Origin: Candidatus Parcubacteria bacterium
GTDB lineage: Bacteria; Patescibacteriota; Minisyncoccia; Minisyncoccales; JAGLUP01
DNA: 64,000 bases
Direction: 5' to 3'
Assembly: GCA_023134715.1 (NCBI GenBank)
Contig: JAGLUP010000002.1
Coordinates: 15,906 to 79,905, forward strand
Shown here piece after piece: positions 30,629 through 56,485 of this stretch (the first letter of the stretch is position 1; every line of letters begins with the position of its first letter). The position numbers were made by a program, and so were the translations under genes. The notes under the pieces are model-generated. The model was not told where the DNA came from. It did no database searches and was given only the letters and a program-made list of their open reading frames with translations.

Positions 30629-30657
30629 TTAACTAATTAAGAATATTGTTGTATAAT
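30629..30657 (+). promoter_or_regulatory. Promoter of the SepRS-SepCysS operon (near-leaderless)
   Basis: TTAACT, 17 nt, TATAAT. The ATG lies only 9 nt after the -10 element. Confidence 0.45.
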
Positions 30658-30666
30658 AAAAATACT

Positions 30667-32205
30667 ATGGATAATGATAAAATAAAAAATAAAGGGTTGT
30701 GGGATATTAAAAAATTAAAAGAGAAAAAGGAAAAAGATTTTGAAAAAACATGGCTTGAAACAGCCAAGCTTTTACCGAGAAATACCCATCTTAAATTAAA
30801 AAACAAAGGAACGCCGAATTTAGTCGCAGAGATGATAGAAAAATCAAGAAAAATTCTTTTAAATGCTGGCTTTAGAGAAGTGATAAATAAAACTATTTTA
30901 CCTGAAGATGATATTTATAAACAATATGGCCCGGAGAGTCCTTTAATTTTAGATAGAACCTATTATCTCGCGACCCCATCTAAGCCAGATATAGGATTAA
31001 GCAAAAAGAGAATTGAGGAAATAAGCAAAATAATAGGAAGTTTTACTTCGGAAAAATTGCAAAACATATTGCGCGACTATAAAAAGGGAATAATAGAGGG
31101 AGACGATTTAATTGAAGAAATAGTTAATAAACTTAAGATAAAGCCAGAACAGGCTACGGCAATAATTGAAAAGGTTTTTCCAGAATTTAAAAAAAATAGA
31201 CCGGTTTGTTCTAATCTAACATTAAGGGGGCATATGACAGCTACTTGGTATCATACTCTTGCCGCCCTTCAAGACAAAGAGGAATTTCCAATAGCGTTAT
31301 TTTCTGTCGGGCCTCGCTATAGAAACGAACAAAGAGAGGATTTCAGCCATCTTTGCGTCCATAATTCCGCTTCTATGGTAATTATGGATCCTGAAATAAG
31401 CATTGAAGCAGGCAGAAAAATTACAAAAGAAATTTTAAAAGAATACGGCTTTAAGGACGCAAAATTTGAGAAAAAAAAGGCAACTGCAAAATATTACGCG
31501 CCGGAACAAGAAGAAGAAGTATTTGTGAAAAAATTCGGAAAGTGGATTGAAATAGCAAATATAGGAATGTATTCTCCAATCTCTTTGGCAAATTTTAAAA
31601 TTCGCTATCCTGTGTTTAATGCTGGCTTTGGCATAGAAAGATTAGCTATGGTGTTAGAAAATATCAAAGATATAAGAAAACTTGTTTATCCTCAATTTTA
31701 TGAAAAAGAATATACTGATGAAGAAATAGCTGAATCCATCAGTTATATAAAAGAGCCCTCTACTTTAAAGTGTAAAAAAATAGCCGAGTCAATAGAAAAA
31801 ACAGCAAGGAAAGAAAAAGATGAAGCATCTCCTTGCGAAATTGAAGCATATAAAGATAATTCAATTAAAGTGGAAATTATAGAAAAGGAAGAAAATAAAA
31901 AATTAATTGGTCCCGCCGGACTAAATTATATTTGCGTAAAAGATGAAAATATATATCCAGATATTTCTCAATCTGGAATTCCGACAGGGAAATCTTATAT
32001 TTCAGGCATAGCTAACGCGATTGCATACGAGATTGAAAAAGGAAATATCCCGTTTGCGCTTAAAGTTAAAACAGTAAAGGGGCTTTCTGATATTAATATG
32101 AAAATTCCAAAACATATTAGAGATTATTTAGAGGGAAAAGGAAAAAAAATCGGTTTAAGCGGATATGCGTTTGTGGAAATCCAAGTTAAAAAAAATAAAA
32201 AATGA
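30667..32205 (+). CDS. sepS: O-phosphoseryl-tRNA(Cys) ligase (SepRS)
   Basis: Collinear with archaeal SepRS as I recall it: DFEKTWLET, DIYKQYGPE, LDRTYYLA, PDIGLS, YKKGIIEGDDL, VFPEFK, LTLRGHMT, HNSAS, KYYAPEQEEEV, GFGIERLAMV, VYPQFYE. The start is set to ATG 30667 (the track gives TTG 30646). Confidence 0.85.
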   Translation: MDNDKIKNKGLWDIKKLKEKKEKDFEKTWLETAKLLPRNTHLKLKNKGTPNLVAEMIEKSRKILLNAGFREVINKTILPEDDIYKQYGPESPLILDRTYYLATPSKPDIGLSKKRIEEISKIIGSFTSEKLQNILRDYKKGIIEGDDLIEEIVNKLKIKPEQATAIIEKVFPEFKKNRPVCSNLTLRGHMTATWYHTLAALQDKEEFPIALFSVGPRYRNEQREDFSHLCVHNSASMVIMDPEISIEAGRKITKEILKEYGFKDAKFEKKKATAKYYAPEQEEEVFVKKFGKWIEIANIGMYSPISLANFKIRYPVFNAGFGIERLAMVLENIKDIRKLVYPQFYEKEYTDEEIAESISYIKEPSTLKCKKIAESIEKTARKEKDEASPCEIEAYKDNSIKVEIIEKEENKKLIGPAGLNYICVKDENIYPDISQSGIPTGKSYISGIANAIAYEIEKGNIPFALKVKTVKGLSDINMKIPKHIRDYLEGKGKKIGLSGYAFVEIQVKKNKK

Positions 32206-33302
32206 TATACAAAAGACAAAACAAAAATAAAATAAATATTAATCCTATTCAAGCCGGGGGAATCTTAACACAAGACGCAAAGAAAACGCTTATTGAGTGG
32301 GGAGATGGTTATTCAGTATGTGATATTTGGTATAGCGGAAAAATTGATAAAATAGAAAATCCGCAAATCAGAAAATTTATTGATGAAGCTCTGCCAAAAT
32401 TTCTCGGAAGCGACATTGTAAGAATAATAGGAGGGGCAAGAGAAGGAATATGCGCTATTATGCGCGCTGTGACAAAGCCAGGAGATACTATTTTAATAGA
32501 CGAAAATAAACATTACACAACCGTGCTTGCCGCTGAAAAAAACGACTTAAAGGTTATTGAAGTTCCAAACTCTGGACACCCTCAATATAAAATTGATGTT
32601 AAAGATTATGAAAAATTAATAAAAAAACATAAGCCAGCTTTAATTTTATTAACTTATCCAGACGGAAATTATGGAAATATGCCAGACGCAAAAAAACTTG
32701 GAGAAATCGTTTCAAAATATAATATTCCTTATTTATTAAACGCCGCTTATTCCGCGGGAAGGTTGCCTGTTAGCTTAAGCGCTATTAACGCAGATTTTAT
32801 AGTCACATCCGGACATAAAAGCATGGCTTCTTCCGAGCCCATTGGAATATTGGGTTTTAGAAAAAAATGGAAAGATATTTTATTTAAAAAATCTTCTTTT
32901 TATCCTGATAAAGAAATTGAATTTTTAGGCCATTATCAGAAAGGCGCGCCGATGATGACTTTAATGGCTTCTTTTCCTTATGTTGTAAAACGAGTAAAGA
33001 ATTGGGAAGAACAAGTGGAAAAAGCAAGATGGTTTTCAGCTGAAATGGAAAACCTTGGTTTTAAGCAATTGGGTGAAAAACCGCATAACCATGACTTGCT
33101 TTTTTTTGAAAGCCCTCAGCTTTATAAAATCTCGCAAAAACACAAAGATGGAAGATTTTTTCTTTATAAAGAACTAAAAAAGAATGGAATTTATGGAATA
33201 AAGCCAGGACTAACTAAATATTTTAAACTTTCAACATTTGCCGCGTCAAAACAAGACCTGCAAAAGATATTAAAAACTTTTGAAGAAATATTAAGAAAAT
33301 AA
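32202..33302 (+). CDS. pscS: Sep-tRNA:Cys-tRNA synthase (SepCysS), PLP-dependent
   Basis: ININPIQAGGILT, EWGDGYSVCD and SGHKSM (PLP lysine). Its ATGA overlaps the SepRS stop. Confidence 0.85.
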   Translation: MIYKRQNKNKININPIQAGGILTQDAKKTLIEWGDGYSVCDIWYSGKIDKIENPQIRKFIDEALPKFLGSDIVRIIGGAREGICAIMRAVTKPGDTILIDENKHYTTVLAAEKNDLKVIEVPNSGHPQYKIDVKDYEKLIKKHKPALILLTYPDGNYGNMPDAKKLGEIVSKYNIPYLLNAAYSAGRLPVSLSAINADFIVTSGHKSMASSEPIGILGFRKKWKDILFKKSSFYPDKEIEFLGHYQKGAPMMTLMASFPYVVKRVKNWEEQVEKARWFSAEMENLGFKQLGEKPHNHDLLFFESPQLYKISQKHKDGRFFLYKELKKNGIYGIKPGLTKYFKLSTFAASKQDLQKILKTFEEILRK

Positions 33303-36952: not shown

Positions 36953-38614
36953 ATGAAAAATTGGAGAATTAATCTTATTTTGGCTTTTATATTATTATTT
37001 GGAGCGGTTATTATTGGCCGCTTGTTTTATATCCAAATAGTAGACCACAACTACTACCTTGCTTTAGCCAAAGGACAGCATAAATTCTTAGAAGAAATTA
37101 GCGGCCGAAGAGGCGAAGTTTTTTTTCAAAATAAAACAGAAACATTAGCAATCAATAAAAATCAAGAACTAATTTTCATTTCCCCTAAAGAAATTGAAAA
37201 TCAAGAAGAAACAGCTGATAAGTTGGCTGAAATTCTTGGCTTAGAAAAAGATGTCATTTTAGAAAAAACTAAAAAAGATACTTTTTATGAATTGATAAAA
37301 AATAAGTTAAGCCCGGAAGAAATAGAGGATTTAAAAAAAATAAATTTAACAGGAGTTCATCTGCGACAAGTTCCAGGAAGATATTACACTCAAGGACTTT
37401 TGGCCGCGCATATAATAGGATTTTTGGGCGGAGACAAACAAGGTCAATACGGTATAGAGGGATACCATAATGACTTGCTAAAAGGAGAACAGGGTTTGCG
37501 AGAAAAAGAAAAAAGTCCATGGGGCTTTTCTTTTTTTCAAGAAAATTCTGCTCCAGCGCTAAAAGGAACAGACATTGTCTTGACTATTGATTATAATATC
37601 CAATTTAAAGCGGAAAAATTATTAAAACAAGCTAAAGAAAATTTAGATATTGAATCAGGAACAATTATAGTCATAGAGCCAGATACAGGAAAAATTCTTA
37701 CTATGGCTAATTTCCCGAGCTTTAATCCTAATGAATATTCAAAAATTGAAGATTTTGAAATTTTTCAAAATTCTGCCATTCAAAAACTTTATGAACCAGG
37801 CTCTGTTATGAAACCATTTACTATGGCAGCTGCTTTAAATGAAGGAAAAATAACTCCTGAGACAACTTATATTGATGAAGGAAAATTAACAATTAAAGAC
37901 CGAACTATTTATAATTATAACTTAAGTGTCTGGGGCGAAATGACAATGACAAATGTTTTGGAAAAATCAATCAATACTGGCGCGGTTTTTGCTGAAAGCC
38001 AAGTTGGGCATAATATTTTCTTAGATTATTTGGAAAAATTCGGCTTTTTTAATTCAACTGATATTGATTTACAAGGAGAGAGTTATTCGCAAAATAAAGA
38101 ATTGAAAAAGGGCTATGAAATAAATTTTGCTACTGCTTCTTATGGCCAAGGGATTGAAATGACGCCAATTCAGTTAGCCCGGGCTTTTTCCAGTATTGCC
38201 AACGGAGGAAAAATAATTAAACCTTATATAGTAGAAAATGAAAATCAGCCGCAGATTCTTAATAGGCCAATCTCTAAAAAAACCTCTTCTCAATTAACAG
38301 CTATGCTGGTAAGCGTAACAGAAAACGGTTTTGCTAAAAAAGCCAGGGTTCCCGGCTATTATATTGCCGGCAAAACCGGCACGGCCCAGGTTTCTTGGAG
38401 CGCCTTAGATGTTGACAAAGAGGGATATTCCGACAAAACAATCCAAAGTTTTATTGGATTTGCTCCTGCTTTTGACCCTCAATTTTTAATCTTGGTAAAA
38501 CTGGACAATCCCAAAACAAGAACAGCTGAATATTCAGCTATGCCTTGTTTTCAAAAATTAGCAAAATATATTATTGATTACTGGCAAATCCCCCCAGACC
38601 TTGAAAACTATTGA
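36953..38614 (+). CDS. ftsI: Penicillin-binding protein 2/3 class transpeptidase
   Basis: N-terminal TM helix; SxxK (GSVMKP), SxN (KSINTG) and KTG (GKTGTAQ) motifs. Confidence 0.85.
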   Translation: MKNWRINLILAFILLFGAVIIGRLFYIQIVDHNYYLALAKGQHKFLEEISGRRGEVFFQNKTETLAINKNQELIFISPKEIENQEETADKLAEILGLEKDVILEKTKKDTFYELIKNKLSPEEIEDLKKINLTGVHLRQVPGRYYTQGLLAAHIIGFLGGDKQGQYGIEGYHNDLLKGEQGLREKEKSPWGFSFFQENSAPALKGTDIVLTIDYNIQFKAEKLLKQAKENLDIESGTIIVIEPDTGKILTMANFPSFNPNEYSKIEDFEIFQNSAIQKLYEPGSVMKPFTMAAALNEGKITPETTYIDEGKLTIKDRTIYNYNLSVWGEMTMTNVLEKSINTGAVFAESQVGHNIFLDYLEKFGFFNSTDIDLQGESYSQNKELKKGYEINFATASYGQGIEMTPIQLARAFSSIANGGKIIKPYIVENENQPQILNRPISKKTSSQLTAMLVSVTENGFAKKARVPGYYIAGKTGTAQVSWSALDVDKEGYSDKTIQSFIGFAPAFDPQFLILVKLDNPKTRTAEYSAMPCFQKLAKYIIDYWQIPPDLENY

Positions 38615-38716
38615 CATTTTTGGACATTATGGTATAATTAAAAATGTTAGGAGAGAGAAACTGATTTTAGTATATTGACGAAAAACAGACCTCTCCTTTG
38701 AATGTCTGTTTTTCTT
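38611..38716 (+). promoter_or_regulatory. Promoter plus ~75-nt terminated leader/sRNA, copy 1
   Basis: TTGACA-16-TATAAT with TG extension. Next come GGAGAGAGAAACTGATTTTAGTATATTGACG and the terminator AAACAGAC-ctctcctttgaat-GTCTGTTTTT. Confidence 0.55.
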
Positions 38717-38723
38717 TATTGAT

Positions 38724-38790
38724 AGTTCTTTAAATAACAAAAAACCCTCCTTCGTTAAAAACTATGGAGGGCAAAGAAAGAAAGAGAAAA
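38724..38790 (+). repeat. Cassette 5' module (AGTTCTTTAAATAA, CCCTCC..GGAGGG hairpin, purine tract), copy C1
   Basis: Shared with 45940-46015 and 46643-46719. Confidence 0.75.
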
Positions 38791-38892
38791 AACAGAGAAG
38801 CCATCTCCGTTAAATATTCTCCTGCTGATTGAGGTTCTAAGTTTTGGACCTTAGTCAGCAGGAGGATAATTTATCCCTGCGAGGTGAAAAAG

Positions 38893-39336
38893 ATGAAAGA
38901 AAAAATGAAAACAATGATAGTGGCTATTTTAATAATAGTTACTATAGGAATTGTAGGAGCGGATGTATGGGACGCCTATTATAGCCATGTTGTCTATATT
39001 GAAGAGATAGAAGTCCACATAGCGGAAAACATAAACGTAGAGCTATTAAGTGGCGCAGATTCTGCTTTCGTATATCCTGGCAACATTTTATGCAGAACTT
39101 ACAAAATAACAAACAAAAAAGGGGTAGAACAAAAAATGATGGTTAATTTCGGAATATCAGAAGTGCCATATAGTTTATATACAGTAATTGAAGGAACAAC
39201 TGGACCTAATGAATTCTATGTTCCTCCAGGAGAAAAAATAGTGCAAGCATGCTGGAAACCTTTGGCTAATGCTCCTAGCGGGGATTATACTATGAATATA
39301 GTATTTTCCAGAATGAAGCACACCTTTCGCGGCTAA
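38893..39336 (+). CDS. Small membrane-anchored protein, cassette 1
   Basis: GAGGTGA SD 5 nt upstream of ATG 38893. The product has an N-terminal TM helix and a beta-rich body. Confidence 0.65.
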   Translation: MKEKMKTMIVAILIIVTIGIVGADVWDAYYSHVVYIEEIEVHIAENINVELLSGADSAFVYPGNILCRTYKITNKKGVEQKMMVNFGISEVPYSLYTVIEGTTGPNEFYVPPGEKIVQACWKPLANAPSGDYTMNIVFSRMKHTFRG

Positions 39337-39338
39337 AT

Positions 39339-39404
39339 AGTTTTTTTTCTTTCTTTTTTTCTTTTTTCGAGCTCATAAAACAAGGATTGTGGGTTGGAAA
39401 AAAG
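39339..39404 (+). repeat. Cassette 3' module (polypyrimidine tract plus conserved hairpin), copy a
   Basis: TTTTTTCTTTCTTTTTTT, then CTTTTTTCGAGCTCA-loop-TGGGTTGGAAAAAAG. Confidence 0.8.
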
Positions 39405-39461
39405 TGAATAAAAAATAAACAGCTCTTTTAATTAAATAAAATAAAAAAAGAGGGAAAGAAA

Positions 39462-39632
39462 ATGATTGCAATTGGTAAAACAAATTTAATAGGAGATATA
39501 CCTGGAAATCTTTCTAGGGTAATTTTAGGAAAAGATTTCTGCATGGAAAACGGTGCATTGTTAAAAATAAAAGAGGAGAGAAAGGAAACGTTGAAACGAA
39601 TTAAAAGAAATGTGGAACGTCAACGACCTTAA
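39462..39632 (+). CDS. 56-aa protein, cassette 1b
   Basis: MIAIGKTNLIGDIPGNLSRVILGKDFCMENGALLKIKEERKETLKRIKRNVERQRP. It is absent from the ORF track, and its stop is directly followed by a 3' module copy. Confidence 0.4.
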   Translation: MIAIGKTNLIGDIPGNLSRVILGKDFCMENGALLKIKEERKETLKRIKRNVERQRP

Positions 39633-39689
39633 CTCTTCTCTTTCTTCTTTTTTCGAGCTCATAAAACGGGTTTGTGGGTTGGAAAAAAG
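39633..39689 (+). repeat. Cassette 3' module, copy b
   Basis: CTCTTCTCTTTCTTC, then CTTTTTTCGAGCTCA-taaaacgggttt-GTGGGTTGGAAAAAAG. Confidence 0.8.
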
Positions 39690-39710
39690 TAGATAGAAGT
39701 AAACGAAAAA

Positions 39711-39739
39711 CTACACCGGACGGGTCGGTGTGGTTTTTT
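39711..39739 (+). terminator. Intrinsic terminator
   Basis: ACACCG-gacgggt-CGGTGT followed by GGTTTTTT. Confidence 0.65.
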
Positions 39740-39789
39740 GATTTTGTGATGGTTTTGTGTTAAATTTAATAATGAACTAATAAACACAA

Positions 39790-39861
39790 GGCCCTATCGT
39801 CTAACGGTCAGGACGCTAGATTCTCAATCTAGTAATAGGGGTTCGATTCCCCTTAGGGCTA
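39790..39861 (+). tRNA. tRNA-Glu (anticodon CUC)
   Basis: Cloverleaf: acceptor GGCCCTA/TAGGGCT, anticodon stem CTAGA/TCTAG with loop TTCTCAA, T-arm AGGGG-TTCGATT-CCCCT. Confidence 0.85.
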
Positions 39862-39907
39862 CATAAGAATAAATAAGTTCTTTTAAAATTTAAAAGAGGT
39901 GATAAAA

Positions 39908-40288
39908 ATGAAAACAACAGACGAGATTGGGGCAAAAAAGATAGAAGCAACGCACTTAATTAAGGTAGAACTAAAATTTGATAAAAATAAATGGACAGAA
40001 AAAAGTTTAAAAGAATTTGTAGATAAAAAAATGGAAGGGATAAATCCTCTATGTTTTCCTGATTTAGATTTATTTAGAGTTAAAGATGATACACTGAATG
40101 TCTGCCTATTTATTAGTTTTTTAGCCGGAGTAAAAACAACTGGAAAATTAGCCAAAGAATGGCTTGAGGGACATATAAAAGAACAAGGAATAAAAATAGA
40201 GAAAATAGAAGTAAAGGCAATGATGGATTTTATATCAAAAATACAAGGATTAAATTTCGAGTATAAATCTCGGAATTTTTTTTATTAA
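39908..40288 (+). CDS. Hypothetical protein
   Basis: AAAAGAGGTGATAAAA SD before ATG 39908 (the track gives GTG 39899). No motif recognised. Confidence 0.55.
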   Translation: MKTTDEIGAKKIEATHLIKVELKFDKNKWTEKSLKEFVDKKMEGINPLCFPDLDLFRVKDDTLNVCLFISFLAGVKTTGKLAKEWLEGHIKEQGIKIEKIEVKAMMDFISKIQGLNFEYKSRNFFY

Positions 40289-40347
40289 ATTTTTGGTTTT
40301 TGCAAAAAATAGAGAATAAGGTAGAATAAACCCAGTAGTAAAATAAT

Positions 40348-42954
40348 ATGGAAAAAGAAATTTCTTATCATGGTTTTTCTTCAGAAGAAATAATAAGACA
40401 ACTGGAAACAAATTCTGAGCAGGGTTTATCTGAAGAAGAAGTAAAATCGCGCCATAGGCAATATGGCAAAAATGCGCTTCCTAAAGAAAAACCTTTGTCT
40501 CAACTGAAAATACTTTTAGAACAAGTTCGCAGTCCTTTGATTTATATCTTAATTATTGCTGGACTTATTACTTTATCATTAAAAGATTATACTGACACTA
40601 TTGTTATTTTCGGCGCTGTCTTTTTAAACACAATCTTTGGTTATGTTCAGGAAAAAAAGGCCTCAGAGGCCCTAAGAAAGCTAAAGCAGATTTTAAAGAT
40701 TAAAATAATTGTTTTTCGGAGCGGAAAAGAAAAAATAATTTTTCAAGAAGAATTAGTACCCGGAGATATTATACTTTTAAGACCGGGCGACAAGGTTCCA
40801 GCTGACGCAAGATTAATTAATGAGCGCAATTTGAAAATAAACGAGGCGGCTCTTACCGGAGAATGGTGGACGGCTGAAAAAACCAGCAAACCGCTTCCAG
40901 AGAAAACAGCTTTAGCTGACAGAGACAATATGGTTTATATGGGTACGGTAGTAGAACAGGGACACGGAAAAGCCGTGGTTACTACTACCGGACTGCAAAC
41001 CGAGATTGGGAAAGTTGCTCAAATGCTTAGGGACGTAAAAGAGGAAAAAACTCCTTATCAAAAAAAATTAATTCGCTTTAGCAAGAAAATTGGGATTATT
41101 ATTGTTTTAATCTGTATGGGAATTTTTATTGAGGGAATGCTTACAGGCGGCGAATTTATAGAAATGTTCACTATCGCTATTGCTGTAGCCGTGTCTGTCA
41201 TTCCAGAAGGGCTTCCAATGGCAATGACAGTAATTTTGTCTTTAGGGATGACAAGAATCTTAAAAAAGAAAGGATTGGTAAGAAAATTAGCTTCGGCTGA
41301 AACGCTCGGCTCAACTTCAATAATTCTCACTGATAAAACAGGGACTTTAACCGAGGCAAAAATGAAAGTAGCCGGAATTTTTAATGCCGCAAAACAAATT
41401 GAAATCAAAGACGAATCTTATATCTTGGCTATAAAAATCGCTACATTGTGCAGTGAAGCGTTTATTGAAAATCCTGAAGAATCTTTGGAAAAATGGGTTG
41501 TCCAAGGGAGACCCACAGATAAAGCATTGCTTCTGGCAGGAATTCAAGCCGGACTTTCTAAAAATAAGCTTGAAAAGGAAGAGCCAAAAATTGACGAAAT
41601 TAGCTTTAGCCCTGTTTATAAATACTCGGCAGTCCTACATAAATTTTCTAAAAACAAAAATATATTGTATGTCTTGGGCGCTCCAGAAATAATTTTAGAA
41701 AAATCAAAATTATCTAAATCACAGCGAGAAAAGTTAATTAAAAAAGAAGAAAGCTTAAGTAATAAAGGATTAAGGGTTTTAGCTGTCGCTTATAAAAAAT
41801 GCGCGGCTGAAAACGAAATCAAGCCCGAAGATGTTGATAAATTAATTTTTGTTGGATTTATTGGACTGCATGATCCAATTAGAAAAGGCGCGAAAAAAGC
41901 GATTAAGGTTTGTCGTCAAGCCGGACTGAAAACAATCATTATTACCGGCGACCATAAATTAACCGCAAAATCAGTAGCTAAAGAATTAGGTATTTTTGTA
42001 AAAGAAAAAAATATTTTGGAAGGAAATGAGTTGAAAGATTTAAGTGACGATGAATTAGAAAATAAGATAAAAGACATTAAAATATACGCCAGAGTAGAGC
42101 CAAAACAAAAATTAAGAATTGTTAAGGCGTGGCAAAATAAGGGAGAAGTGGTGGCAATGACTGGAGACGGTATAAACGACGCTCCAGCGCTAAAACAAGC
42201 TGATATAGGAGTAGCTTTGGGAACAGGTACCGAGGTGGCAAAAGAAGCGTCTGATTTGGTTCTTTTAACTAATGATTTTGCTATTATCGTATCCGCAATT
42301 GAAGAGGGCAGAATAATTATTGATAATATCAGAAAAGTAATCACTTATTTGTTTTCTGGCGGTTTTACTGAAATAATTTTAATTGGAATCTCTCTTTTTT
42401 TCGGCTGGCCTCTGCCAATTTTAGCCGGCCAAATTTTATGGATAAATATTATTGAAGACGGACCGCTCGGCATCTGTCTGGCTTTTGAAAAAAAAGAAAA
42501 AGATGTAATGAAGCAAAAACTTCAAGGCCATGATATTCCTCTTTTGACTAAAGAAATGAAAAATCTAATTTTCATTATTGGATTTCTTAATTTCTTGCTT
42601 CTCTTAGCGCTGTTTTTTTGGCTTTTGAAATATTCAGGTTATGAAATTTCTCATATTAGATCAGTTATTTTTGCCGGCTTAACCATAGATTCAATTTTCT
42701 ATGTTTTTTCCTGTAAAAGCTTGAGACGCAATTTATGGCATATTAATCCTTTATCTAATAAATTCCTGATTGGCGCATGGCTATTTGGCATTATAATGCT
42801 GTTAACAGCGCTTTATCTTCCTCCTTTACAAACGCTTCTTAAAACAGTCCCTCTAAATCTTCTTGACTGGACATTACTCTTAGGATTGGGCATCTTAAAT
42901 ATAATTTTAATTGAAGCCGTAAAATGGCGCTTCATTACCAAAATAAAAAAATGA
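40348..42954 (+). CDS. P-type cation-transporting ATPase (type IIA, Ca2+-like)
   Basis: DKTGTLT phosphorylation motif, TGDGINDAPAL and PEGLP. Confidence 0.9.
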   Translation: MEKEISYHGFSSEEIIRQLETNSEQGLSEEEVKSRHRQYGKNALPKEKPLSQLKILLEQVRSPLIYILIIAGLITLSLKDYTDTIVIFGAVFLNTIFGYVQEKKASEALRKLKQILKIKIIVFRSGKEKIIFQEELVPGDIILLRPGDKVPADARLINERNLKINEAALTGEWWTAEKTSKPLPEKTALADRDNMVYMGTVVEQGHGKAVVTTTGLQTEIGKVAQMLRDVKEEKTPYQKKLIRFSKKIGIIIVLICMGIFIEGMLTGGEFIEMFTIAIAVAVSVIPEGLPMAMTVILSLGMTRILKKKGLVRKLASAETLGSTSIILTDKTGTLTEAKMKVAGIFNAAKQIEIKDESYILAIKIATLCSEAFIENPEESLEKWVVQGRPTDKALLLAGIQAGLSKNKLEKEEPKIDEISFSPVYKYSAVLHKFSKNKNILYVLGAPEIILEKSKLSKSQREKLIKKEESLSNKGLRVLAVAYKKCAAENEIKPEDVDKLIFVGFIGLHDPIRKGAKKAIKVCRQAGLKTIIITGDHKLTAKSVAKELGIFVKEKNILEGNELKDLSDDELENKIKDIKIYARVEPKQKLRIVKAWQNKGEVVAMTGDGINDAPALKQADIGVALGTGTEVAKEASDLVLLTNDFAIIVSAIEEGRIIIDNIRKVITYLFSGGFTEIILIGISLFFGWPLPILAGQILWINIIEDGPLGICLAFEKKEKDVMKQKLQGHDIPLLTKEMKNLIFIIGFLNFLLLLALFFWLLKYSGYEISHIRSVIFAGLTIDSIFYVFSCKSLRRNLWHINPLSNKFLIGAWLFGIIMLLTALYLPPLQTLLKTVPLNLLDWTLLLGLGILNIILIEAVKWRFITKIKK

Positions 42955-43415
42955 TTCCTGAATTAAAAATTTTCTTAATCGCTATGACTCCATTCGGAGA
43001 ACTAAGAGCGGCGATTCCAATTGCTCTTGAGATTTATAAGCTTCCAATTTGGTCAGCTTATTTTTGGTCGGTTTTAGGAAATTTAGTGCCTGTAATTTTA
43101 ATTTTAAAAGGATTAAAAATAACTTCAGAATACCTTTCTCACAGGATTTATTTTTTTAATAGATTTTTCGCCTGGCTTTTTGAAAGAACCAGAAATAATC
43201 ATGCTCAAAAAGTTAAAAAATGGAAAGAATGGGTATTGATAGCTTTAGTAGCTATTCCATTGCCTTTTACCGGAGCGTGGACTGGAAGTTTAGTTGCTTT
43301 TGTTTTTGGATTTCCTTTTAGAAAAGCGTTTCCTTTAATTGTTCTTGGCGTAATGATTGCTGGAATTATTGTAACTTTTACGACTTTGCTGATAACTAAA
43401 GGATTAACCCCTTGA
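42951..43415 (+). CDS. Small multidrug-export-like membrane protein (COG2426-type)
   Basis: MIPELKIFLIAMTPFGELRAAIPIAL. Its ATGA overlaps the ATPase stop. The product has four hydrophobic helices. Confidence 0.6.
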   Translation: MIPELKIFLIAMTPFGELRAAIPIALEIYKLPIWSAYFWSVLGNLVPVILILKGLKITSEYLSHRIYFFNRFFAWLFERTRNNHAQKVKKWKEWVLIALVAIPLPFTGAWTGSLVAFVFGFPFRKAFPLIVLGVMIAGIIVTFTTLLITKGLTP

Positions 43416-43518
43416 CATTTTTTCGCTTTATGATATAATTATAATTGTTAAGGAGAGAGAAACTGATTTTAGTATATTGACGAAAAACAGACCTCTCCCT
43501 TAGATGTCTGTTTTTCTT
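43412..43518 (+). promoter_or_regulatory. Promoter plus ~75-nt terminated leader/sRNA, copy 2
   Basis: TTGACA-16-TATAAT. The transcribed part is nearly identical to copy 1. Confidence 0.55.
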
Positions 43519-43668
43519 TATTGATAGTTCTTTAAGTAAAAAAAAGAAAGAGAAATGAAATCTTCAGGGCAGTAAATTGATAATTAATAATTAATTATTA
43601 GCTTAATGCTCTGAAGAAATTTGATAATGTCAGGTTTTCTGGTGATGGCAGATATATTGAGGTAAAAA

Positions 43669-44004
43669 ATGGATACAAAATGGAAAATATTATGGATAAT
43701 AGTGGTCTTGGGATTGCTTGCGATATACCCTGTTGCGCTTCATACAAGCGGGACCAGTAAGGAAATAACAGTGAAAGAAAAATGGGTGAAATACCACAGA
43801 GAAGATGCTAAATATTTATTCTCCGATGAAGAGAATAATGTATATAGTATTGAAGATTCTATTTGGCTTATAAAATTTGATGCGTCAGATAGATATGCAA
43901 AGATAACAGAAGGAAAGAGATATCTTATCAAAACATATGGCTGGAGAATTCGGATATTATCATCCTATTCAAATGCTATGGGAATTACTGAAATATCTAA
44001 CTAA
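43669..44004 (+). CDS. Small membrane-anchored protein, cassette 2
   Basis: GAGGTAAAAA before the ATG. The product has an N-terminal TM helix and is followed by a 3' module. Confidence 0.65.
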   Translation: MDTKWKILWIIVVLGLLAIYPVALHTSGTSKEITVKEKWVKYHREDAKYLFSDEENNVYSIEDSIWLIKFDASDRYAKITEGKRYLIKTYGWRIRILSSYSNAMGITEISN

Positions 44005-44007
44005 TAA

Positions 44008-44069
44008 TTTTTTCTTTCTTTTTTTCTTTTTTCGAGCTCATAAAACAATGTTTGTGGGTTGGAAAAAAG
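44008..44069 (+). repeat. Cassette 3' module, copy c
   Basis: Polypyrimidine tract plus CTTTTTTCGAGCTCA-taaaacaatgttt-GTGGGTTGGAAAAAAG. Confidence 0.8.
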
Positions 44070-44115
44070 AAAAATTAAATTGACTTTTTAGGATGAAAAT
44101 GTTAATTTGATAGTA

Positions 44116-45105
44116 ATGTCAGATATTGTTTTAATTTTAACAATTTTTTTAATTATTGCCGGAGGAATAGGATTTTTATTTTTTTTCTTTAAAAAAGAAA
44201 TTGAGAAACTTGGAGAGAAAAAAGATGATGATTCTTTGACAAAAATAATAGAAAAACAAATCACTCAAAGCACTAAGGTTATTGAAAATGTTACTGAAAA
44301 ATTAACCAAATTAGAAAATACGAATAAACAGGTAGTCGGTTTTGCGCAGCAGCTGCAGTCATTGGAAAATATTTTAAAAAATCCAAAGCAGAGAGGAATT
44401 TTAGGGGAGTATTACCTGGAAGAATTATTGAAAAATGTTTTCAGTCCTAATCAATACCAGATGCAATATGCGTTTAAAGACGGACAAATAGTTGACGCGG
44501 CAATTTTTATTAAAGATAAAATTCTTCCGATTGATTCAAAGTTTTCTTTAGAAAATTATAATAAAATTGTTGAAGAAAAAGACGCTTTCAGGCGAGAACA
44601 GCTGGAAAAAATATTTAAACAAGATTTAAAAAATAGAATAGACGAAACAGCTAAATATGTTAGACCAGAAGAGGGGACTCTTGATTTCGCGTTTATGTTT
44701 ATACCGGCCGAGGCGATTTATTATGATTTGTTAGTCAATAAAGTCGGAGCGGTTAAAAGCAATACACGGGACCTTGTTAATTACGCAGTAAGAGAAAAGC
44801 ATGTTCATATTGTTTCGCCAACATCTTTTTACGCTTATCTGCAAACAATTTTACAGGGATTGCGGGCTATGCAAATTGAAGAGTCAGCAAAAGAAATTCG
44901 CAAAGGAGTTGAAATGCTCGGACGGCATATAGTAAGTTATGAAGAATATATGCAAAAGCTGGGAAATAATCTCGGCACGACTGTAAACGCTTACAATAAA
45001 AGTTATAAAGAATTGAGTAAAATAGACAAAGATATAGCTAAAATTACTCAAGGTAAAAAAACAATTAAACCATTAGAATTAGAAAAACCAGAACAAAACT
45101 TATGA
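44116..45105 (+). CDS. rmuC: DNA recombination protein RmuC
   Basis: N-terminal TM helix and coiled coil. The nuclease-like core is DFAFMFIPAEAIYYDL. The start is set to ATG 44116. Confidence 0.8.
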   Translation: MSDIVLILTIFLIIAGGIGFLFFFFKKEIEKLGEKKDDDSLTKIIEKQITQSTKVIENVTEKLTKLENTNKQVVGFAQQLQSLENILKNPKQRGILGEYYLEELLKNVFSPNQYQMQYAFKDGQIVDAAIFIKDKILPIDSKFSLENYNKIVEEKDAFRREQLEKIFKQDLKNRIDETAKYVRPEEGTLDFAFMFIPAEAIYYDLLVNKVGAVKSNTRDLVNYAVREKHVHIVSPTSFYAYLQTILQGLRAMQIEESAKEIRKGVEMLGRHIVSYEEYMQKLGNNLGTTVNAYNKSYKELSKIDKDIAKITQGKKTIKPLELEKPEQNL

Positions 45106-45422
45106 GTTTAGCAGTAATTAGAACCGGCGGGAAGCAGTATTTGGTTTCCACGGGACAAAAACTAAAAATTGAGAAATTAGATATAGATGAGGGGAAAGAA
45201 GTAGAGTTTCCAGAGGTTTTGTTGTTGGAGAAAAATAAAAAACTGGAGATTGGAACTCCTTTTGTTAAGGGCGCAAAAGTTCTTGGAAAAATTTTAAAAC
45301 AGGCCAGAGCTAAAAAAGTAATCATTTTCAAATATAAAGCCAAAAAACGCTACAAGAAAAAAACAGGACACAGGCAATCCTTTACTGAAGTGGAGATAAC
45401 TAAGATAGAAAAAGAAAAGTAA
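45102..45422 (+). CDS. rplU: 50S ribosomal protein L21
   Basis: AVIRTGGKQYLVSTGQKLKIEKL..GHRQSFTEVEI. Confidence 0.9.
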   Translation: MSLAVIRTGGKQYLVSTGQKLKIEKLDIDEGKEVEFPEVLLLEKNKKLEIGTPFVKGAKVLGKILKQARAKKVIIFKYKAKKRYKKKTGHRQSFTEVEITKIEKEK

Positions 45423-45426
45423 AAAA

Positions 45427-45465
45427 AGGTTCAAATTCCGACGATCGCGCTAATTTGAACCTTTT
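45427..45465 (+). terminator. Intrinsic terminator after rplU
   Basis: AGGTTCAAATT..AATTTGAACCT followed by TTTT. Confidence 0.7.
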
Positions 45466-45511
45466 GAAAACTAAAATTATTGCAGACATTGCAAATATTT
45501 TCAAAAAACGC

Positions 45512-45617
45512 TTGACATTTTTTCATTATGTGGTATAATTAAAACATAAATGGAGAGAGAAATTTGTCATTAAATAACAAACGACTCTTCCATTTTTGGA
45601 GAGTCGTTTGTTATTTC
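45512..45617 (+). promoter_or_regulatory. Promoter plus terminated leader/sRNA, copy 3 (divergent)
   Basis: TTGACA-16-TATAAT, then GGAGAGAGAAATTTG and the hairpin AACAAACGACTCTTCC-attttt-GGAGAGTCGTTTGTT. Confidence 0.5.
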
Positions 45618-45655
45618 AGCTCTTTAGTTTCCAGCTCTTTTTTTAAAAAAAGAAA

Positions 45656-45793
45656 ATGAAAAAACCAACCACGGAAATAGAAGGAAATAAAAAACCAACC
45701 ACAACGACAGAAGCTATGGCAGAAACTATGATAGTTATTGCAGGAACTCCTGTACCCGCTAGTCAGGCAAAACAATATAGAGCAATATTCTAA
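45656..45793 (+). CDS. Possible 45-aa peptide
   Basis: MKKPTTEIEGNKKPTTTTEAMAETMIVIAGTPVPASQAKQYRAIF. The SD is weak, and a terminator follows. Confidence 0.25.
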   Translation: MKKPTTEIEGNKKPTTTTEAMAETMIVIAGTPVPASQAKQYRAIF

Positions 45794-45807
45794 ATTTTCT
45801 TTTTTAA

Positions 45808-45846
45808 GAGACGGTAAAACCAAATTTATTTGTGTTTTACCGTCTC
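45808..45846 (+). terminator. Intrinsic terminator-like hairpin
   Basis: GAGACGGTAAAAC..GTTTTACCGTCTC. Confidence 0.55.
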
Positions 45847-45939
45847 AACCTTATTTTCAATAGCAACGAGAGAATTCTTTTTAAACAAAATGCACACGTC
45901 AGGTCTGTGTAAATTTGAAAAGAGCTCTCTCCTTGTTAG

Positions 45940-46015
45940 AAATAAAAAAAACAGTTCTTTAAATAAAAAAACCCTCCTTCGTTAAAACTATGGAGGGCAA
46001 AGAAAGAAAGAGAAA
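45940..46015 (+). repeat. Cassette 5' module, copy C3
   Basis: AAATAAAAAAAACAGTTCTTTAAATAAAAAAACCCTCCTTCGTTAAAACTATGGAGGGCAAAGAAAGAAAGAGAAA. Confidence 0.8.
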
Positions 46016-46132
46016 TGAAATCTTCAGGGCAGTGAATTGATAATTAAACAATTAATTGTCAGTTTAATGCTCTGAAGAAATCTGATAATGTCAGATTTTC
46101 TGGTGACGGCAGATATATATTGAGGTGAAAGA

Positions 46133-46552
46133 ATGGATATTGGTCTTATTAGCAGTATGGCAATACTTTTTCTACTTGGAATGGTAGGATTGGCAAATGC
46201 GACACTTGCAGAAGAAAAAAATAGACGAGCTGTGTCCGCTGGAATTGGAATGATTGCGTGGCTTGCCCTTGGTGCCACAGCTACGACTCAAGTAATGGAT
46301 GCAGGTTCTCCAGCAGGGATTGATGAGCTAAAGATCGGTGGAGAATATCATGTCAATTATGTAGAGTATTCTTGCGCATCGATTGACTTGCTCCTTCAGG
46401 CAGTAGAAGAGGATGAAGAGAAGACAGAACCAATACATGTAAGGATAGAAAGATCAAGGAGACAAGACTACTTGAATCAACATGATATGGTTATTGTGAC
46501 GAACGAGAAAAATCTAAAAATTACCCGTCGTCATGATAACGCAATGGGCTAA
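46133..46552 (+). CDS. Small membrane protein, cassette 3
   Basis: GAGGTGAAAGA before the ATG. The product has two N-terminal hydrophobic helices and is followed by a 3' module. Confidence 0.65.
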   Translation: MDIGLISSMAILFLLGMVGLANATLAEEKNRRAVSAGIGMIAWLALGATATTQVMDAGSPAGIDELKIGGEYHVNYVEYSCASIDLLLQAVEEDEEKTEPIHVRIERSRRQDYLNQHDMVIVTNEKNLKITRRHDNAMG

Positions 46553-46554
46553 AT

Positions 46555-46635
46555 TTTTTCTTTCTTTTTTTCTTTTTTCGAGCTCAGAAAAATGTACAAG
46601 ACCCGACCTCGTACATTTTGTGGGTTGGAAAAAAG
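46555..46635 (+). repeat. Cassette 3' module, copy d (loop carries an extra nested hairpin)
   Basis: CTTTTTTCGAGCTCA..AAAATGTACAAG-acccgacc-TCGTACATTTT..GTGGGTTGGAAAAAAG. Confidence 0.8.
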
Positions 46636-46642
46636 CAAACAA

Positions 46643-46719
46643 AAATAAAAAAAACAGTTCTTTAAATAAAAAAACCCTCCTTCGTTAAAACTATGGAGGG
46701 CAAAGAAAGAAAGAGAAAA
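46643..46719 (+). repeat. Cassette 5' module, copy C4
   Basis: Identical core to 45940-46015. Confidence 0.8.
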
Positions 46720-46806
46720 CAACAGAGAAGCCATCCCGGGGGACACCCCGGTGGATATGAATCTTACTCTTCCGGCAAAGATTGGAAGAAAAAAGAGGTG
46801 AAAAAC

Positions 46807-46977
46807 ATGGATAGAAAAAATATATTGATTGTTATGATATTCCTGATAGTGGGGAGTTTAACGACAATCATTGCGTCGCTAATAAGCACAGGCACAGTGA
46901 ATAAAGAACTATTGGAAATTATATTTAATGTAGACGCGCTCATTCTCGTCTATGTTGGAATATTAAGCATTCATTAG
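46807..46977 (+). CDS. 56-aa two-TM protein, cassette 4
   Basis: GAGGTGAAAAAC before ATG 46807. The track start at 46693 lies inside the conserved 5' module and was not used. Confidence 0.5.
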   Translation: MDRKNILIVMIFLIVGSLTTIIASLISTGTVNKELLEIIFNVDALILVYVGILSIH

Positions 46978-47034
46978 TTTCTCTTTCTTTTTTTCTTTTT
47001 TCGAGTCCATAAATATTTGTGGGTTGGAAAAAAG
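46978..47034 (+). repeat. Cassette 3' module, copy e
   Basis: TTTCTCTTTCTTTTTTT, then CTTTTTTCGAGTCCA-taaatattt-GTGGGTTGGAAAAAAG. Confidence 0.8.
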
Positions 47035-47102
47035 AGGTTAGAGATGCTCTCGTCCTGCATCTTTGCTCTCTCCTAGACGTAGGATGGGAGCTTCTCTGAC
47101 CT
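47035..47102 (+). other. Long imperfect hairpin whose loop displays GCTCTCTCC
   Basis: AGGTTAGAGATGCTC pairs with GAGCTTCTCTGACCT, and GTCCTGCATCT pairs with AGACGTAGGAT. The loop is TTGCTCTCTCC. Confidence 0.4.
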
Positions 47103-47106
47103 TTTT

Positions 47107-47136
47107 AAAACAGCCCCGCTAAGCGGGGCTGTTTTT
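47107..47136. terminator. Bidirectional intrinsic terminator (ends recR on the minus strand)
   Basis: AAAACAGCCCCGC-taa-GCGGGGCTGTTTTT. Confidence 0.75.
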
Positions 47137-49089: not shown

Positions 49090-49223
49090 ATCTTTATCTT
49101 TCAGTATATCTAATCTTTAAAAAATTTCAACCCTTTACAAAAACTTAAAATCAAGTATGCTTAAATTAGTTCAATGAGAAGAGAATGCTCTTTAAGAACT
49201 GAAAATTAAAAGAGGTGATAAAA

Positions 49224-50495
49224 ATGATAGCTGAAGCTATAATGACTAAAAAATCTATAAATGAAAAACCTGCATGTCCGGACTGCGGAAGTAGGCAAAC
49301 AATAACTGACTATAAACATGGTGAAATAATTTGTAAGTGTGGTTTGGTTTTAAATGATACATTATTTAATTTCGGACCCGAGACAAGAGCATACGACCAG
49401 GAAAAAATGGATAAAGTAGCGAGAACTGGCAGTCCTTTAAAATTTGCCAAACAAAATTTAGGATTGACGACAGAAATAGATCATTATGATAGAGATATTT
49501 TGGGAAGATCAATTCCAACTGAAAGAAAAGCTCAACTCTATCGTCTAAGGAAATGGCAAAGAAGAGCAAGAATGGGAACATCTGTTGACAGAAATCTTTC
49601 TATAGCATTGCCAGAGCTTGATAGAATGTGCGGACATTTAAACATTCCCAATAATATCAAGGAAGAATGCGCTCAGCTTTATAGAAAATGCGTAAAAGAA
49701 AGAATAGTCAGAGGAAGATCAATAGAAAGCGTAGTCGCGGCAGTAATATATTTAATATCAAGACAGCGTAAGCTTCCAAAAATCCTTGATGAGTTGGAAA
49801 GTGTGTCTGGCGTCAAGAAAAAAGATATTGGAAGGAGTTATAGAATAATTTGCAGAAGAATGAAGATAAGAATGCCAGTGACTACGGCGGCAGATTATAT
49901 ATCGAGATTAGCAAGCAAAGCAGGGGTCTCGGGAGAAACACAAGCAAAGGCGATAGAAATACTTGAGAAAGCAAGAAAAGACGGAACGATAAGCGGAAGA
50001 GTGCCTATAAGCATGGCGGCGGCAGGAATATATTTAGCCGCAGAAATGACGGGAGACGAGAATGCCAAACAAATTAAAGGAATTTCAGGTGTTTCTGAGA
50101 TGGGAATAAAAAATAGATATAACGAACTAAAAAGATTTATTGACAGAGACAATGGAATAGAAGTATTGCTTGAAGAAGAGATAGAAACATTAGATGATAT
50201 GCTGGGGAAGGTAGAAAAGAAAAAGATTCTGCTAAAATTTGCCGATGAGTTAGAGTTGTCAGACGAAACAAAAAAAGAAGCAGTTGAGATTCTGGAAAAA
50301 GTTATGGAAAATGGCTTTAAGCTGGATCCAAGAAAAAATATCAATGGATACATAGAAGCGGCAATTTATCTTAGCGCCATGGACAATGAAAAAATTTCTC
50401 TATGGAAGATAGAAAAGGTTACCAAAACTTCAAGCACAATAATCTGGGATAGGAAAGAAAAAATAAAAAAAGCGTTAATAGGAATAGAGCAATAA
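49224..50495 (+). CDS. Archaeal-type transcription factor B (TFB/TFIIB)-like protein, paralogue 1
   Basis: Zn ribbon CPDCGS..CKCG, GPETRAYD, YRLRKWQRR, two cyclin-fold repeats (RGRSIESVVAAVIYL, IGRSYR, AIEILEKA, AAAGIYLAA, IKNRYNEL) and a ~100-aa C-terminal extension. SD AAAAGAGGTGATAAAA precedes ATG 49224. Confidence 0.85.
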   Translation: MIAEAIMTKKSINEKPACPDCGSRQTITDYKHGEIICKCGLVLNDTLFNFGPETRAYDQEKMDKVARTGSPLKFAKQNLGLTTEIDHYDRDILGRSIPTERKAQLYRLRKWQRRARMGTSVDRNLSIALPELDRMCGHLNIPNNIKEECAQLYRKCVKERIVRGRSIESVVAAVIYLISRQRKLPKILDELESVSGVKKKDIGRSYRIICRRMKIRMPVTTAADYISRLASKAGVSGETQAKAIEILEKARKDGTISGRVPISMAAAGIYLAAEMTGDENAKQIKGISGVSEMGIKNRYNELKRFIDRDNGIEVLLEEEIETLDDMLGKVEKKKILLKFADELELSDETKKEAVEILEKVMENGFKLDPRKNINGYIEAAIYLSAMDNEKISLWKIEKVTKTSSTIIWDRKEKIKKALIGIEQ

Positions 50496-50610: not shown

Positions 50611-50639
50611 ATGAATGAAAAATAAAAGAGGTGATAATA

Positions 50640-55957: not shown

Positions 55958-56010
55958 AATTGCTTTTGGGCGAATTAATTTATTGCTTTGCGTTTCTGCC
56001 CAAAGGGCAG

Positions 56011-56416: not shown

Positions 56417-56485
56417 CCTTCCTCCAAATATCTTTTCTTTTTGCCCGCCCGCTTTTTTGATATGGGGAAAAAATAAGTCCTATAT

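Follow-up and report, generated by a model that had tools for sequence, protein, structure and literature searches.

The DNA analysed here, referred to as the window, is a 64,000-nucleotide (nt) stretch of contig JAGLUP010000002.1 from Candidatus Parcubacteria bacterium (assembly GCA_023134715.1). The contig contains common bacterial housekeeping genes, namely mraZ-rsmH-ftsL-ftsI, a P-type ATPase gene, rmuC, rplU, recR and dnaB. A look-up by exact protein match, meant to extend the contig, yielded a single 12.7-kb Logan contig, which stops at copy 1 of the units described below. Directly behind ftsI, a small exporter gene and rplU, respectively, lies a unit composed of a promoter and a short leader, and each leader is followed by one to three co-oriented small open reading frames (ORFs), several of which have an N-terminal hydrophobic segment (Table 1). 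A preliminary description of this DNA had noticed that the three units stand upstream of small ORFs, which is the case for all three copies, and had proposed that they could act as a riboregulator of read-through into these genes, an interpretation that is partly supported by the present analysis.

The three units start with the same strong promoter, as had been reported: all three match the consensus at 12 of 12 positions, they are the only such matches within 36-50 kb of the window, and the 31-nt promoter pattern was found three times versus 0 expected. The purine box GGAGAGAGAAA follows each promoter and occurs nowhere else in the window. Transcription starts were placed by promoter geometry only. 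A hairpin begins about 20-30 nt after each box, and not 45-60 nt after it as first described. Copies 1 and 2 are 95% identical across about 95 nt, and copy 3 has only the promoter and the box in common with them. In copies 1 and 2 a pyrimidine anti-box, CCUCUCC (CCTCTCC in DNA), lies in the 13-nt loop of the hairpin (38690-38696 and 43492-43498), in agreement with the preliminary description; the stem of leader hairpin 1 covaries with that of locus L008 (other loci are likewise designated by L numbers), and its duplex with the box region has a computed energy of -13.1 kcal/mol. In copy 3 it is the 5' arm of the stem that complements the box, also as first described (GACUCUUCC, GACTCTTCC in DNA, 45583-45591), and the 3' arm contains GGAGAGUC; the box-region duplex amounts to -13.9 kcal/mol (z = -4.3), and the region 45546-45622, which includes this hairpin, folds at -28.6 kcal/mol (z = -7.1). 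A covariance model made from window-type leaders and run with filters off over the 64 kb recovered the three copies at 99.7, 92.5 and 64.7 bits. The next match (27.7 bits) was the reverse strand of copy 3, and no fourth leader copy was found in the window.

Table 1. Positions of the leader units, arrays and repeated modules in the window
Feature	Position	Strand	Remarks
Promoter, copy 1	38611-38638	+	TTGACA, 16-nt spacer, TG, TATAAT; 12/12 consensus match
Promoter, copy 2	43412-43439	+	12/12 consensus match, TG extension
Promoter, copy 3	45512-45539	+	12/12 consensus match, TG extension
Purine box GGAGAGAGAAA, copy 1	38650-38660	+	about +5 to +15 of the inferred transcript
Purine box GGAGAGAGAAA, copy 2	43452-43462	+	sequence read, exact motif scan
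Purine box GGAGAGAGAAA, copy 3	45552-45562	+	sequence read, exact motif scan
Leader hairpin 1	38680-38714	+	AAAAACAGAC/GUCUGUUUUU stem, U-rich tail; RNAfold -13.1 kcal/mol
Leader hairpin 2	43482-43516	+	anti-box CCUCUCC (43492-43498) in 13-nt loop; RNAfold
Leader hairpin 3	45572-45616	+	stem of about 20 base pairs (bp); RNAfold -26.1 kcal/mol alone
Array 1 ORFs	38884-39632	+	150 amino acids (aa; 38884-39336), 56 aa (39462-39632); module-D hairpin after each
Array 2 ORF	43669-44004	+	111 aa, weak DUF1523 match; module-D hairpin (44008-44069) after it
Array 3 ORFs	45656-46977	+	45 aa (45656-45793), 139 aa (46133-46552), 56 aa (46807-46977)
Module D	39343-39404, 39629-39690, 44008-44069, 46554-46636, 46977-47035	+	five-copy family
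CCCUCC-(14-nt loop)-GGAGGG hairpin, then AAAGAAAGAAAGAGAAA	38746-38773, 45966-45992, 46669-46695	+	repeat module
Internal anti-box GCUCUCUCC	45924-45932	+	between the 45-aa ORF unit and the next cassettes; module also in L008
Closing hairpin of array 3	47031-47106	+	GCUCUCUCC (47065-47073) in 12-nt apical loop
Canonical intrinsic terminator ending array 3	47107-47135	+	terminator scan and fold; convergent with recR

Homologous leaders were searched for in other genomes by requiring the promoter hexamers and GGAGAGAG only; the hairpin features downstream were not selected for. Fourteen loci with this combination were recovered from metagenome contigs. A strict scan of species-representative genomes for promoter plus box gave no match, and a relaxed scan with one genome per species gave more than 119, in which the full architecture was observed in metagenome-assembled genomes (MAGs) of Patescibacteria only: Nealsonbacteria (including a complete genome), Buchananbacteria, Paceibacterota and two labelled Saccharibacteria. 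One locus labelled Gammaproteobacteria (L086) carries a leader closely like those of Buchananbacteria. Genomes with the family were sampled from groundwater and sediment (e.g. JGI Ga0210017/Ga0210051/Ga0210057, or SRR13892601). Other relaxed-scan matches in other phyla were rejected as unrelated, being Shine-Dalgarno-plus-ATG sites or tRNA promoters, and none of the 41 matches in viral contigs had the family architecture. Also unrelated is a hairpin leader with GGAGAGAG and CUCUC in Ruminococcaceae/Oscillospiraceae MAGs (L016, L022, L029, L042, L057, L067, L075, L083, L098, L133), which consists of a promoter, GUGGAGAGAGUU, a variable hairpin and ACUCUCAAAU, followed by a conserved ORF (MALTKNPNVLKW…), and in which GGAGAGAG and CUCUC form a simple stem.

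About 22 distinct homologous leaders were collected overall, including loci reached through homologues of ribosomal protein S16 (see below). Every member has a stable hairpin downstream of the box, after a linker of about 17 to about 85 nt that varies in length and sequence. The hairpin stems differ by lineage (AAAAACAGAC, AAAAAUGGAC, CAGGCGG, CAGAAGC, CAAAGGAACC and others) and covary, and CUCUC(C/U) is present in the 5' arm or the loop of nearly all of them. The preliminary description had made its case dependent on the co-conservation of the box and its partners, and GGAGAGAG and the pyrimidine motif are indeed both kept in the approximately 22 leaders with differing stems. An Rfam search, which it had also advised, matched no family to the leader: in Rfam 15 gathering and permissive scans of the window and 10 related loci, only tRNAs reached the gathering score, and sub-threshold matches to PyrR (24.5 bits against 54), MCS4 and the Phe leader were discarded as noise, as were miRNA matches far below threshold. 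A P1 helix enclosing the box was seen in L004, L007, L038 and L077 and was rejected as a family feature, being missing from the 10-sequence consensus fold. No description of the leader element was found in the literature on Patescibacteria cassettes or non-coding RNAs. The leader element constitutes a new, undescribed family in Parcubacteria/Patescibacteria and would be an unusual variety of leader-based control.

In 19 of 21 leader hairpins, a segment of the 5' arm or the loop complements the box perfectly over 5 nt or more. The pairing was evaluated with RNAduplex, using the first 30 nt after the -10 box against the hairpin 5' arm plus loop, and shuffled 5' segments as controls. Duplexes ranged from -9.4 to -25.0 kcal/mol, with a mean z of -3.4 versus the shuffles, and the duplex energy equalled or exceeded that of the hairpin in window copy 1, L003, L036, L073, L077 and L086. 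Cognate pairs reached -15.4 ± 3.5 kcal/mol versus -4.2 ± 2.6 kcal/mol for these 5' segments paired with 20 other terminator-like hairpins of the window (Mann-Whitney p = 4e-8, a value computed on family members that are related to one another). Pairing is extended in a lineage-specific manner in L086 (UUAG:CUAA), L142 (UAUUAG:CUAAUA) and L004 (CAAGA:UCUUG). As box/hairpin pairing is about as stable as the hairpin in several members, a cis-acting terminator/antiterminator or pseudoknot switch is plausible.

Two geometries were distinguished. In the group linked to rpsP, the gene for S16, the anti-box pairs with GAGAG of the hairpin 3' arm, so that the box and the 3' arm would compete for one strand; the predicted geometry is that of a classical antiterminator. 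A loop of 12-13 nt carries the anti-box in the Buchananbacteria group, in L005 and in window copies 1 and 2, and contact of this anti-box with the box would be pseudoknot-like. The leaders resemble attenuators and riboswitch platforms in that they lie, promoter-proximal, between a promoter and co-oriented genes, in that the hairpin has a U-rich tail in window-type and Buchananbacteria-type members, and in that the box complements the 5' arm of the hairpin and duplicates its 3' arm, which would create two mutually exclusive folds of similar energy. They differ from these systems by the lack of a conserved aptamer, T-box, leader-peptide or protein-binding domain, by the variable linker, by the partner sometimes being placed in the loop, and by the second partner at the far end of the operon.

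The stretch 5' of the hairpin might also encode a leader peptide: the conserved (A/U)UGAC motif would start an ORF of 8-26 codons (Met-Thr...), and its translation through the hairpin would prevent termination. In most members an in-frame AUG, UUG or GUG does open a short ORF that crosses the hairpin (MTKNRPLL* in copies 1 and 2; MT... in L002, L003, L025, L038, L077, L102, L124, L139 and L142). We nevertheless consider this explanation very improbable: most members have no Shine-Dalgarno sequence at the proper distance, L073 and L086 have UCACC and not UGACC, a start codon is missing from L135 and L007 would have to use CUG, neither the length nor the sequence of the peptide is conserved, and the apparent synonymous changes are equally explained by covariation of the stem.

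In many relatives, the leader lies directly after rpsP and before khpA-trmD, with differing ORFs between them. This arrangement was used to obtain a box-independent sample, the loci being fetched through nine S16 homologues. Leader-headed arrays were present in four of the nine lineages (L135, L139, L142/L144, L149); in four others (L145, L147, L148, L191-L200) there was no leader within the locus and rpsP abutted the khpA promoter, and the ninth carried a different insertion. The absence of the leader from empty rpsP-khpA sites indicates that it belongs to the variable insert and not to the housekeeping operon. The box was canonical in L135, AGAGAGAG in L139, GGAGGGAG in L142 and diverged in L149. 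In L139 the terminal anti-box, CUCUCUCUU, has a C-to-U change facing the G-to-A change of the box, and in L142 the hairpin arm CCCCCUUCUCUAAUA pairs with its own UAUUAGGAGGG. The box therefore drifts, and in two of the four leaders not selected by their box a variant comes with a matching change of the partner, although the formal covariation test was not significant (see below).

Several further observations were made at these loci. A separate promoter (CTTGACAAA…TAAAAT) serves the khpA-trmD operon and is followed by a conserved structured leader (…AUAGUAGCU…GCCGAAYCUCYGA…AGAGAG…AAAGGUCG…), whether or not an array is inserted (L004 2390-2560, L077 5555-5720, L124 2819-2960, L145 around 4440-4590 and other rpsP-khpA loci); this leader matches no Rfam family at gathering score. 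In L149 (4500-4810), a GIY-YIG-like ORF flanked by the inverted repeat GGGGCTTGCCCTCCCAAATTTTTGGAC / GTCCAAAAACTTGGGAGGGC lies between rpsP and the leader promoter, and the leader behind the family promoter is diverged (AAAAGGGAAUGGUAAG…).

The S16 sample bears on an alternative that we regard as serious, although unlikely, in which the box is a 5' mRNA stabiliser of the STAB-SD type. Its core, AGGAG, would bind the 3' end of 16S rRNA or a conserved protein with no translation start, the array transcript would be shielded from 5'-to-3' decay, and the anti-boxes, which are anti-Shine-Dalgarno-like, would merely mask or unmask the box. There is a precedent in Bacillus thuringiensis cry3A, where a purine tract resembling a Shine-Dalgarno sequence is found near the 5' end and does not start translation (PMC4113751). 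The family box is similarly Shine-Dalgarno-like, contains AGGAG, lies about 5-15 nt from the inferred 5' end and, in most members, has no start codon at Shine-Dalgarno distance; such a function would also suit the members in which the hairpin has a weak U tract. Unlike in STAB-SD, however, box conservation reaches beyond the part that pairs with 16S rRNA, the conserved GAGAG extension contributing nothing to that pairing, and there are conserved intramolecular complements; the partner motifs that follow the box variants in L139 and L142 argue for intramolecular pairing and not for an rRNA partner. True ribosome-binding sites before the window ORFs are of the GAGGUGA type. The 16S rRNA gene of the source genome lies outside the window.

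The small ORFs of the arrays, including both of array 1, have no Pfam assignment except for the weak DUF1523 match of array 2. The 56-aa last ORF of window array 3 is hydrophobic; other arrays end in non-hydrophobic ORFs. No other near-consensus promoter was found ahead of the array ORFs in the window, and across the family every leader precedes co-oriented ORFs and is the sole near-consensus promoter found upstream of them. Each small ORF of the window is followed by module D, a long polypyrimidine tract and a G-U-rich hairpin (AGCUCAUAAA / UUUGUGGGUU; outer arms CUUUUUUC / GGAAAAAAG) that folds with z = -3.8 to -6.5 and pairs, via many G-U, on the plus strand only. Its apical loop is variable, with a 35-nt insertion in one copy, and homologues (…CAGCUCAUAAA…UUUGUGGGCUGAAAGAUGGGAAA) stand behind ORFs in L002, L004, L012, L139 and L008. 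The CCCUCC/GGAGGG hairpin and AAAGAAAGAAAGAGAAA are present or absent as a unit, which is missing from the leader region of copy 2; this hairpin was also seen within the L003 leader. Other repeated non-coding modules are a long hairpin of the 5' untranslated region (43553 and 46013) and a CAGUUCUUUAAAUAAAAA motif. The long hairpin module opens with an identical mini-ORF, ATGAAATCTTCAGGGCAGT(A/G)A (MKSSGQ*), at 43556-43576 and 46016-46036 (+), the two copies of which differ in the stop codon alone (TAA versus TGA). A non-coding module of about 24 nt, AAUAGCAACGAGAGAAUUCUUUUU, at 45851-45878 (+), upstream of the internal anti-box, is common to distant Parcubacteria lineages (L139 5675-5700, L038, L008 8875-8900).

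The content of the arrays differs between closely related strains. In the near-identical strains L004 and L012, homology breaks off immediately behind the leader hairpin, beyond which the ORFs are different; it returns over a linker of 158 nt, beginning within the 3' arm of a module-D hairpin, stops again and returns before khpA.

A second partner of the box is found at the far end of many arrays. In the window, GCTCTCTCC occurs twice (45924-45932 and 47065-47073) versus 0.21 expected, and 2 of 100 shuffles reached two occurrences; the second lies, as first described, in the loop of a long hairpin, which closes array 3 and which, together with the adjacent terminator, folds at -68 kcal/mol (z = -11). 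When the array strand downstream of the leaders was searched, a single CUCUCUCC-like site per array was found in ten arrays besides window array 3 (L002, L003, L004/L012, L007, L036, L077, L102, L124, L135, L139). In those ten, the motif, (A/U)CUCUCUCC(U), occupies the loop of a long hairpin with which the array terminates, immediately ahead of the khpA promoter; the 200-nt regions of these terminal hairpins have fold energies of -63 to -81 kcal/mol. The distal anti-box shows 8-13 bp of complementarity to its own box region in the 11 arrays, window array 3 included. Alignment of five simple terminal hairpins revealed double changes in 14 of 22 stem pairs, with the loop motif kept. The complementary motif in the 47065 loop thus belongs to a layout that is conserved among arrays.

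The preliminary description had noted that these complements would allow a trans-acting kissing interaction. A contact of this kind between units is unproven, because neither array 1 nor array 2 contains its own distal partner, and the distal pairing more closely resembles a link between the two ends, 5' and 3', of one array transcript than a trans contact. The same results are relevant to the possibility that the element is a stand-alone small RNA acting in trans, with a strong promoter, a 5' seed (GGAGAGAG), its own terminator and CUCUCUCC targets (the 47065 loop and 45924), its position upstream of the arrays being incidental. In window-type members the promoter and the good terminator would delimit a transcript of about 70 nt, small RNAs typically combine a conserved 5' seed with a variable body, and the 47065 loop pairs more extensively with the leaders of the other arrays (10 bp for copy 1, 9 bp for copy 2) than with copy 3, which heads its own array. 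However, in an energy scan of 21,324 windows with three 5' segments, the GCUCUCUCC sites ranked merely about 8th-10th, below several polypyrimidine tracts, those of module D scoring as well as the GCUCUCUCC sites. In addition, the distal anti-box is normally on the same transcription unit, the downstream ORFs have no other near-consensus promoter, and the element is found only where variable ORFs follow and is missing from empty sites. We therefore think that a small RNA of this type is quite unlikely.

Besides terminator/antiterminator leaders, the nearest counterpart is the tac/fbi fold-back of hok mRNA, in which a 5'-proximal element pairs with an element at the 3' end of the full-length mRNA and local 5' sequences are alternative partners (PMC9841398). 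The box, the leader anti-box and the terminal-hairpin anti-box would occupy analogous roles. There is no sequence similarity to hok, however; the arrays are polycistronic, 1-2.5 kb long and contain diverse ORFs that are not toxin-like, and their 3' partner is in a hairpin loop and not in a long terminal stem. No antisense RNA gene of the hok/sok kind was seen, and the promoter scan of the window identified no antisense promoter.

We give a probability of about 0.5 to the following reading of these observations: the units are conserved cis-acting entry modules, each a strong promoter with a leader, for variable arrays of small genes, in which box pairing modulates read-through, often in combination with a 5'-3' contact. 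A near-consensus sigma-70 promoter and a structured leader RNA of about 70-110 nt would drive an array of mostly uncharacterised small genes. The 5'-proximal purine box, (A)GGAGAGAG, would pair with the pyrimidine anti-box CUCUCY of the leader's own terminator-like hairpin. Where the anti-box is in the 5' arm, this pairing would exclude the hairpin, the 3' arm of which repeats GAGAG, and act as an antiterminator; where it is in the loop (window copies 1 and 2, for example), a pseudoknot-like contact would form instead. In either case the pairing most likely sets the share of transcription from the strong promoter that reads through into the downstream genes. In many arrays, including window array 3, a second, better-matched anti-box is carried in the loop of the closing hairpin; the completed transcript would join its 5' end to its 3' end, which could stabilise it or feed back on the leader. 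What is observed is a set of conserved and complementary sequence elements in a given genomic association; the start and end of transcription, the direction of regulation and its trigger are inferred.

Several points count against these entry modules as just described. The first concerns termination. The intrinsic terminators of the preliminary description are predictions from RNAfold hairpins with U-rich tails. Window-type hairpins have the A-tract/U-tract geometry typical of intrinsic terminators and a covarying stem; the consensus terminator scanner made no call on leader hairpins 1-3, because their loop is longer than 8 nt or their tail does not pass its criterion. U tracts are poor in several hairpins of the rpsP type (e.g. 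AAUUAUAAAA in L007, UUGGUAAAAAAC in L142), and termination there may be weak or absent. Pairing in the loop would not open the terminator stem, so that no single antiterminator logic applies to the whole family. The second concerns covariation. The core of 8-9 bp is invariant among members selected by their box. For the 11 pairs of box and terminal anti-box, the covariation score was 0.091, against 0.083, and 165 of 500 shuffles reached it, so that it does not exceed the shuffle control; the 7-bp core is invariant in these pairs, and two columns are informative (G-C 3, G-U 3, A-U 2, and G-C 9, A-U 1, G-U 1). Covariation between the two sites is therefore no more than suggestive. No terminal anti-box exists in the Buchananbacteria-type arrays, in L142/L144 or in window arrays 1 and 2. 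Finally, no conserved sensor domain or trigger was identified in the family leaders. Of the riboregulator first proposed, the cis-acting switch is plausible, and the term stays generic because of the absence of an identified ligand or sensor, the variable linker and the lack of an Rfam family.

The presence or absence of arrays at rpsP-khpA and their turnover between near-identical strains could also reflect events at the DNA level. The left motif AGGAGAGAG and the right motif CTCTCTCCT, which are inverted copies of 9-11 bp, would then be terminal inverted repeats or recombination sites, and the hairpins recombinase substrates; one breakpoint of homology between strains was located within the 3' arm of a module-D hairpin, as in an attC x attC exchange, and a CTTGACAAATTT-like sequence is found at both borders. 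This common border sequence is, however, simply a -35 box, and neither an integrase nor a transposase lies beside any array. The motifs are in hairpin loops of the transcribed strand, G-U is tolerated in the pairings (L004, L007, L102), and the restriction of G-U-rich module D to plus-strand folding favours RNA. DNA-level ends are accordingly an improbable explanation of these motifs.

The arrays share with integrons a single strong promoter at the head of small ORFs that are co-oriented, promoterless and variable between strains, an imperfect hairpin (module D) behind each ORF, and cassettes that differ between near-identical strains. Unlike integrons, they are short (1-3 ORFs) and scattered among housekeeping genes. 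An integron proper was rejected: there is no IntI or other integrase among the window ORFs, and module D lacks the attC cores (RYYYAAC ... GTTRRRY). The window encodes a single recombinase, a large one of the serine type (54455-55957, minus strand), which belongs to a separate tRNA-Gln island. A broader and more tentative proposal, possible but in our opinion rather doubtful, is that the leader and the anti-box hairpin are the two ends of an undescribed gene-cassette platform of Patescibacteria, with a transcript closed by box/anti-box pairing, that would follow an integron-like logic without IntI or attC and under RNA-based control. Fixed non-coding modules, namely the leader, the CCCUCC/GGAGGG hairpin, a AGUUCUUUAAAU linker, a module-D hairpin per ORF and the terminal hairpin, would frame exchangeable small genes inserted at housekeeping loci.

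Other features of the window were recorded. At 3203-3300 (+), a near-perfect extended -10 promoter, UUAAGGAGUAUAG and a CCCCGC-CUCU-GCGGGG hairpin precede a cluster of camelysin/TasA-like secreted-protein genes (3993-6910); this unit may be a distant analogue of the box/hairpin arrangement. Adjoining dnaB and recR on this bacterial (Parcubacteria) contig, two tandem paralogous ORFs (49215-50495 and 50631-51896, +) encode proteins of complete TFIIB architecture, with a TFIIB zinc ribbon and TFIIB cyclin repeats (Pfam E around 1e-40); a transcription factor of archaeal/eukaryotic type is unusual in a bacterium. A class II tRNA-synthetase-like ORF (tRNA-synt_2d; 30646-32205, +) is followed by an ORF for a SepSecS/SepCysS-like aminotransferase (32202-33302, +), a pair that looks like the archaeal-type tRNA-dependent cysteine pathway (SepRS/SepCysS). 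Finally, tRNA-Gln (54396-54467) abuts the serine recombinase gene, whose product has Resolvase, Recombinase and zinc ribbon domains; unannotated ORFs lie past it, and a short ORF is duplicated at 56189-56476 and 63601-63945 (minus strand), which suggests that 54396-64000 is an integrated island bounded by repeats.

Bacteria of the candidate phyla radiation cannot be grown alone and, to our knowledge, almost nothing is known about their gene regulation. The family described here would be a lineage-wide design of regulatory RNA that can be found by sequence alone. The leader marks where reduced genomes hold strain-variable small genes of unknown function, some of which encode an N-terminal hydrophobic segment, and searches that combine the leader with the terminal hairpin provide a handle for locating variable loci in metagenomes. 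The design offers two testable ideas, a box/anti-box attenuator devoid of a sensor and the end-to-end (5'-3') pairing of a polycistronic mRNA in bacteria. Should the arrays be true exchangeable cassettes, they would constitute a new route of gene flux in Patescibacteria.

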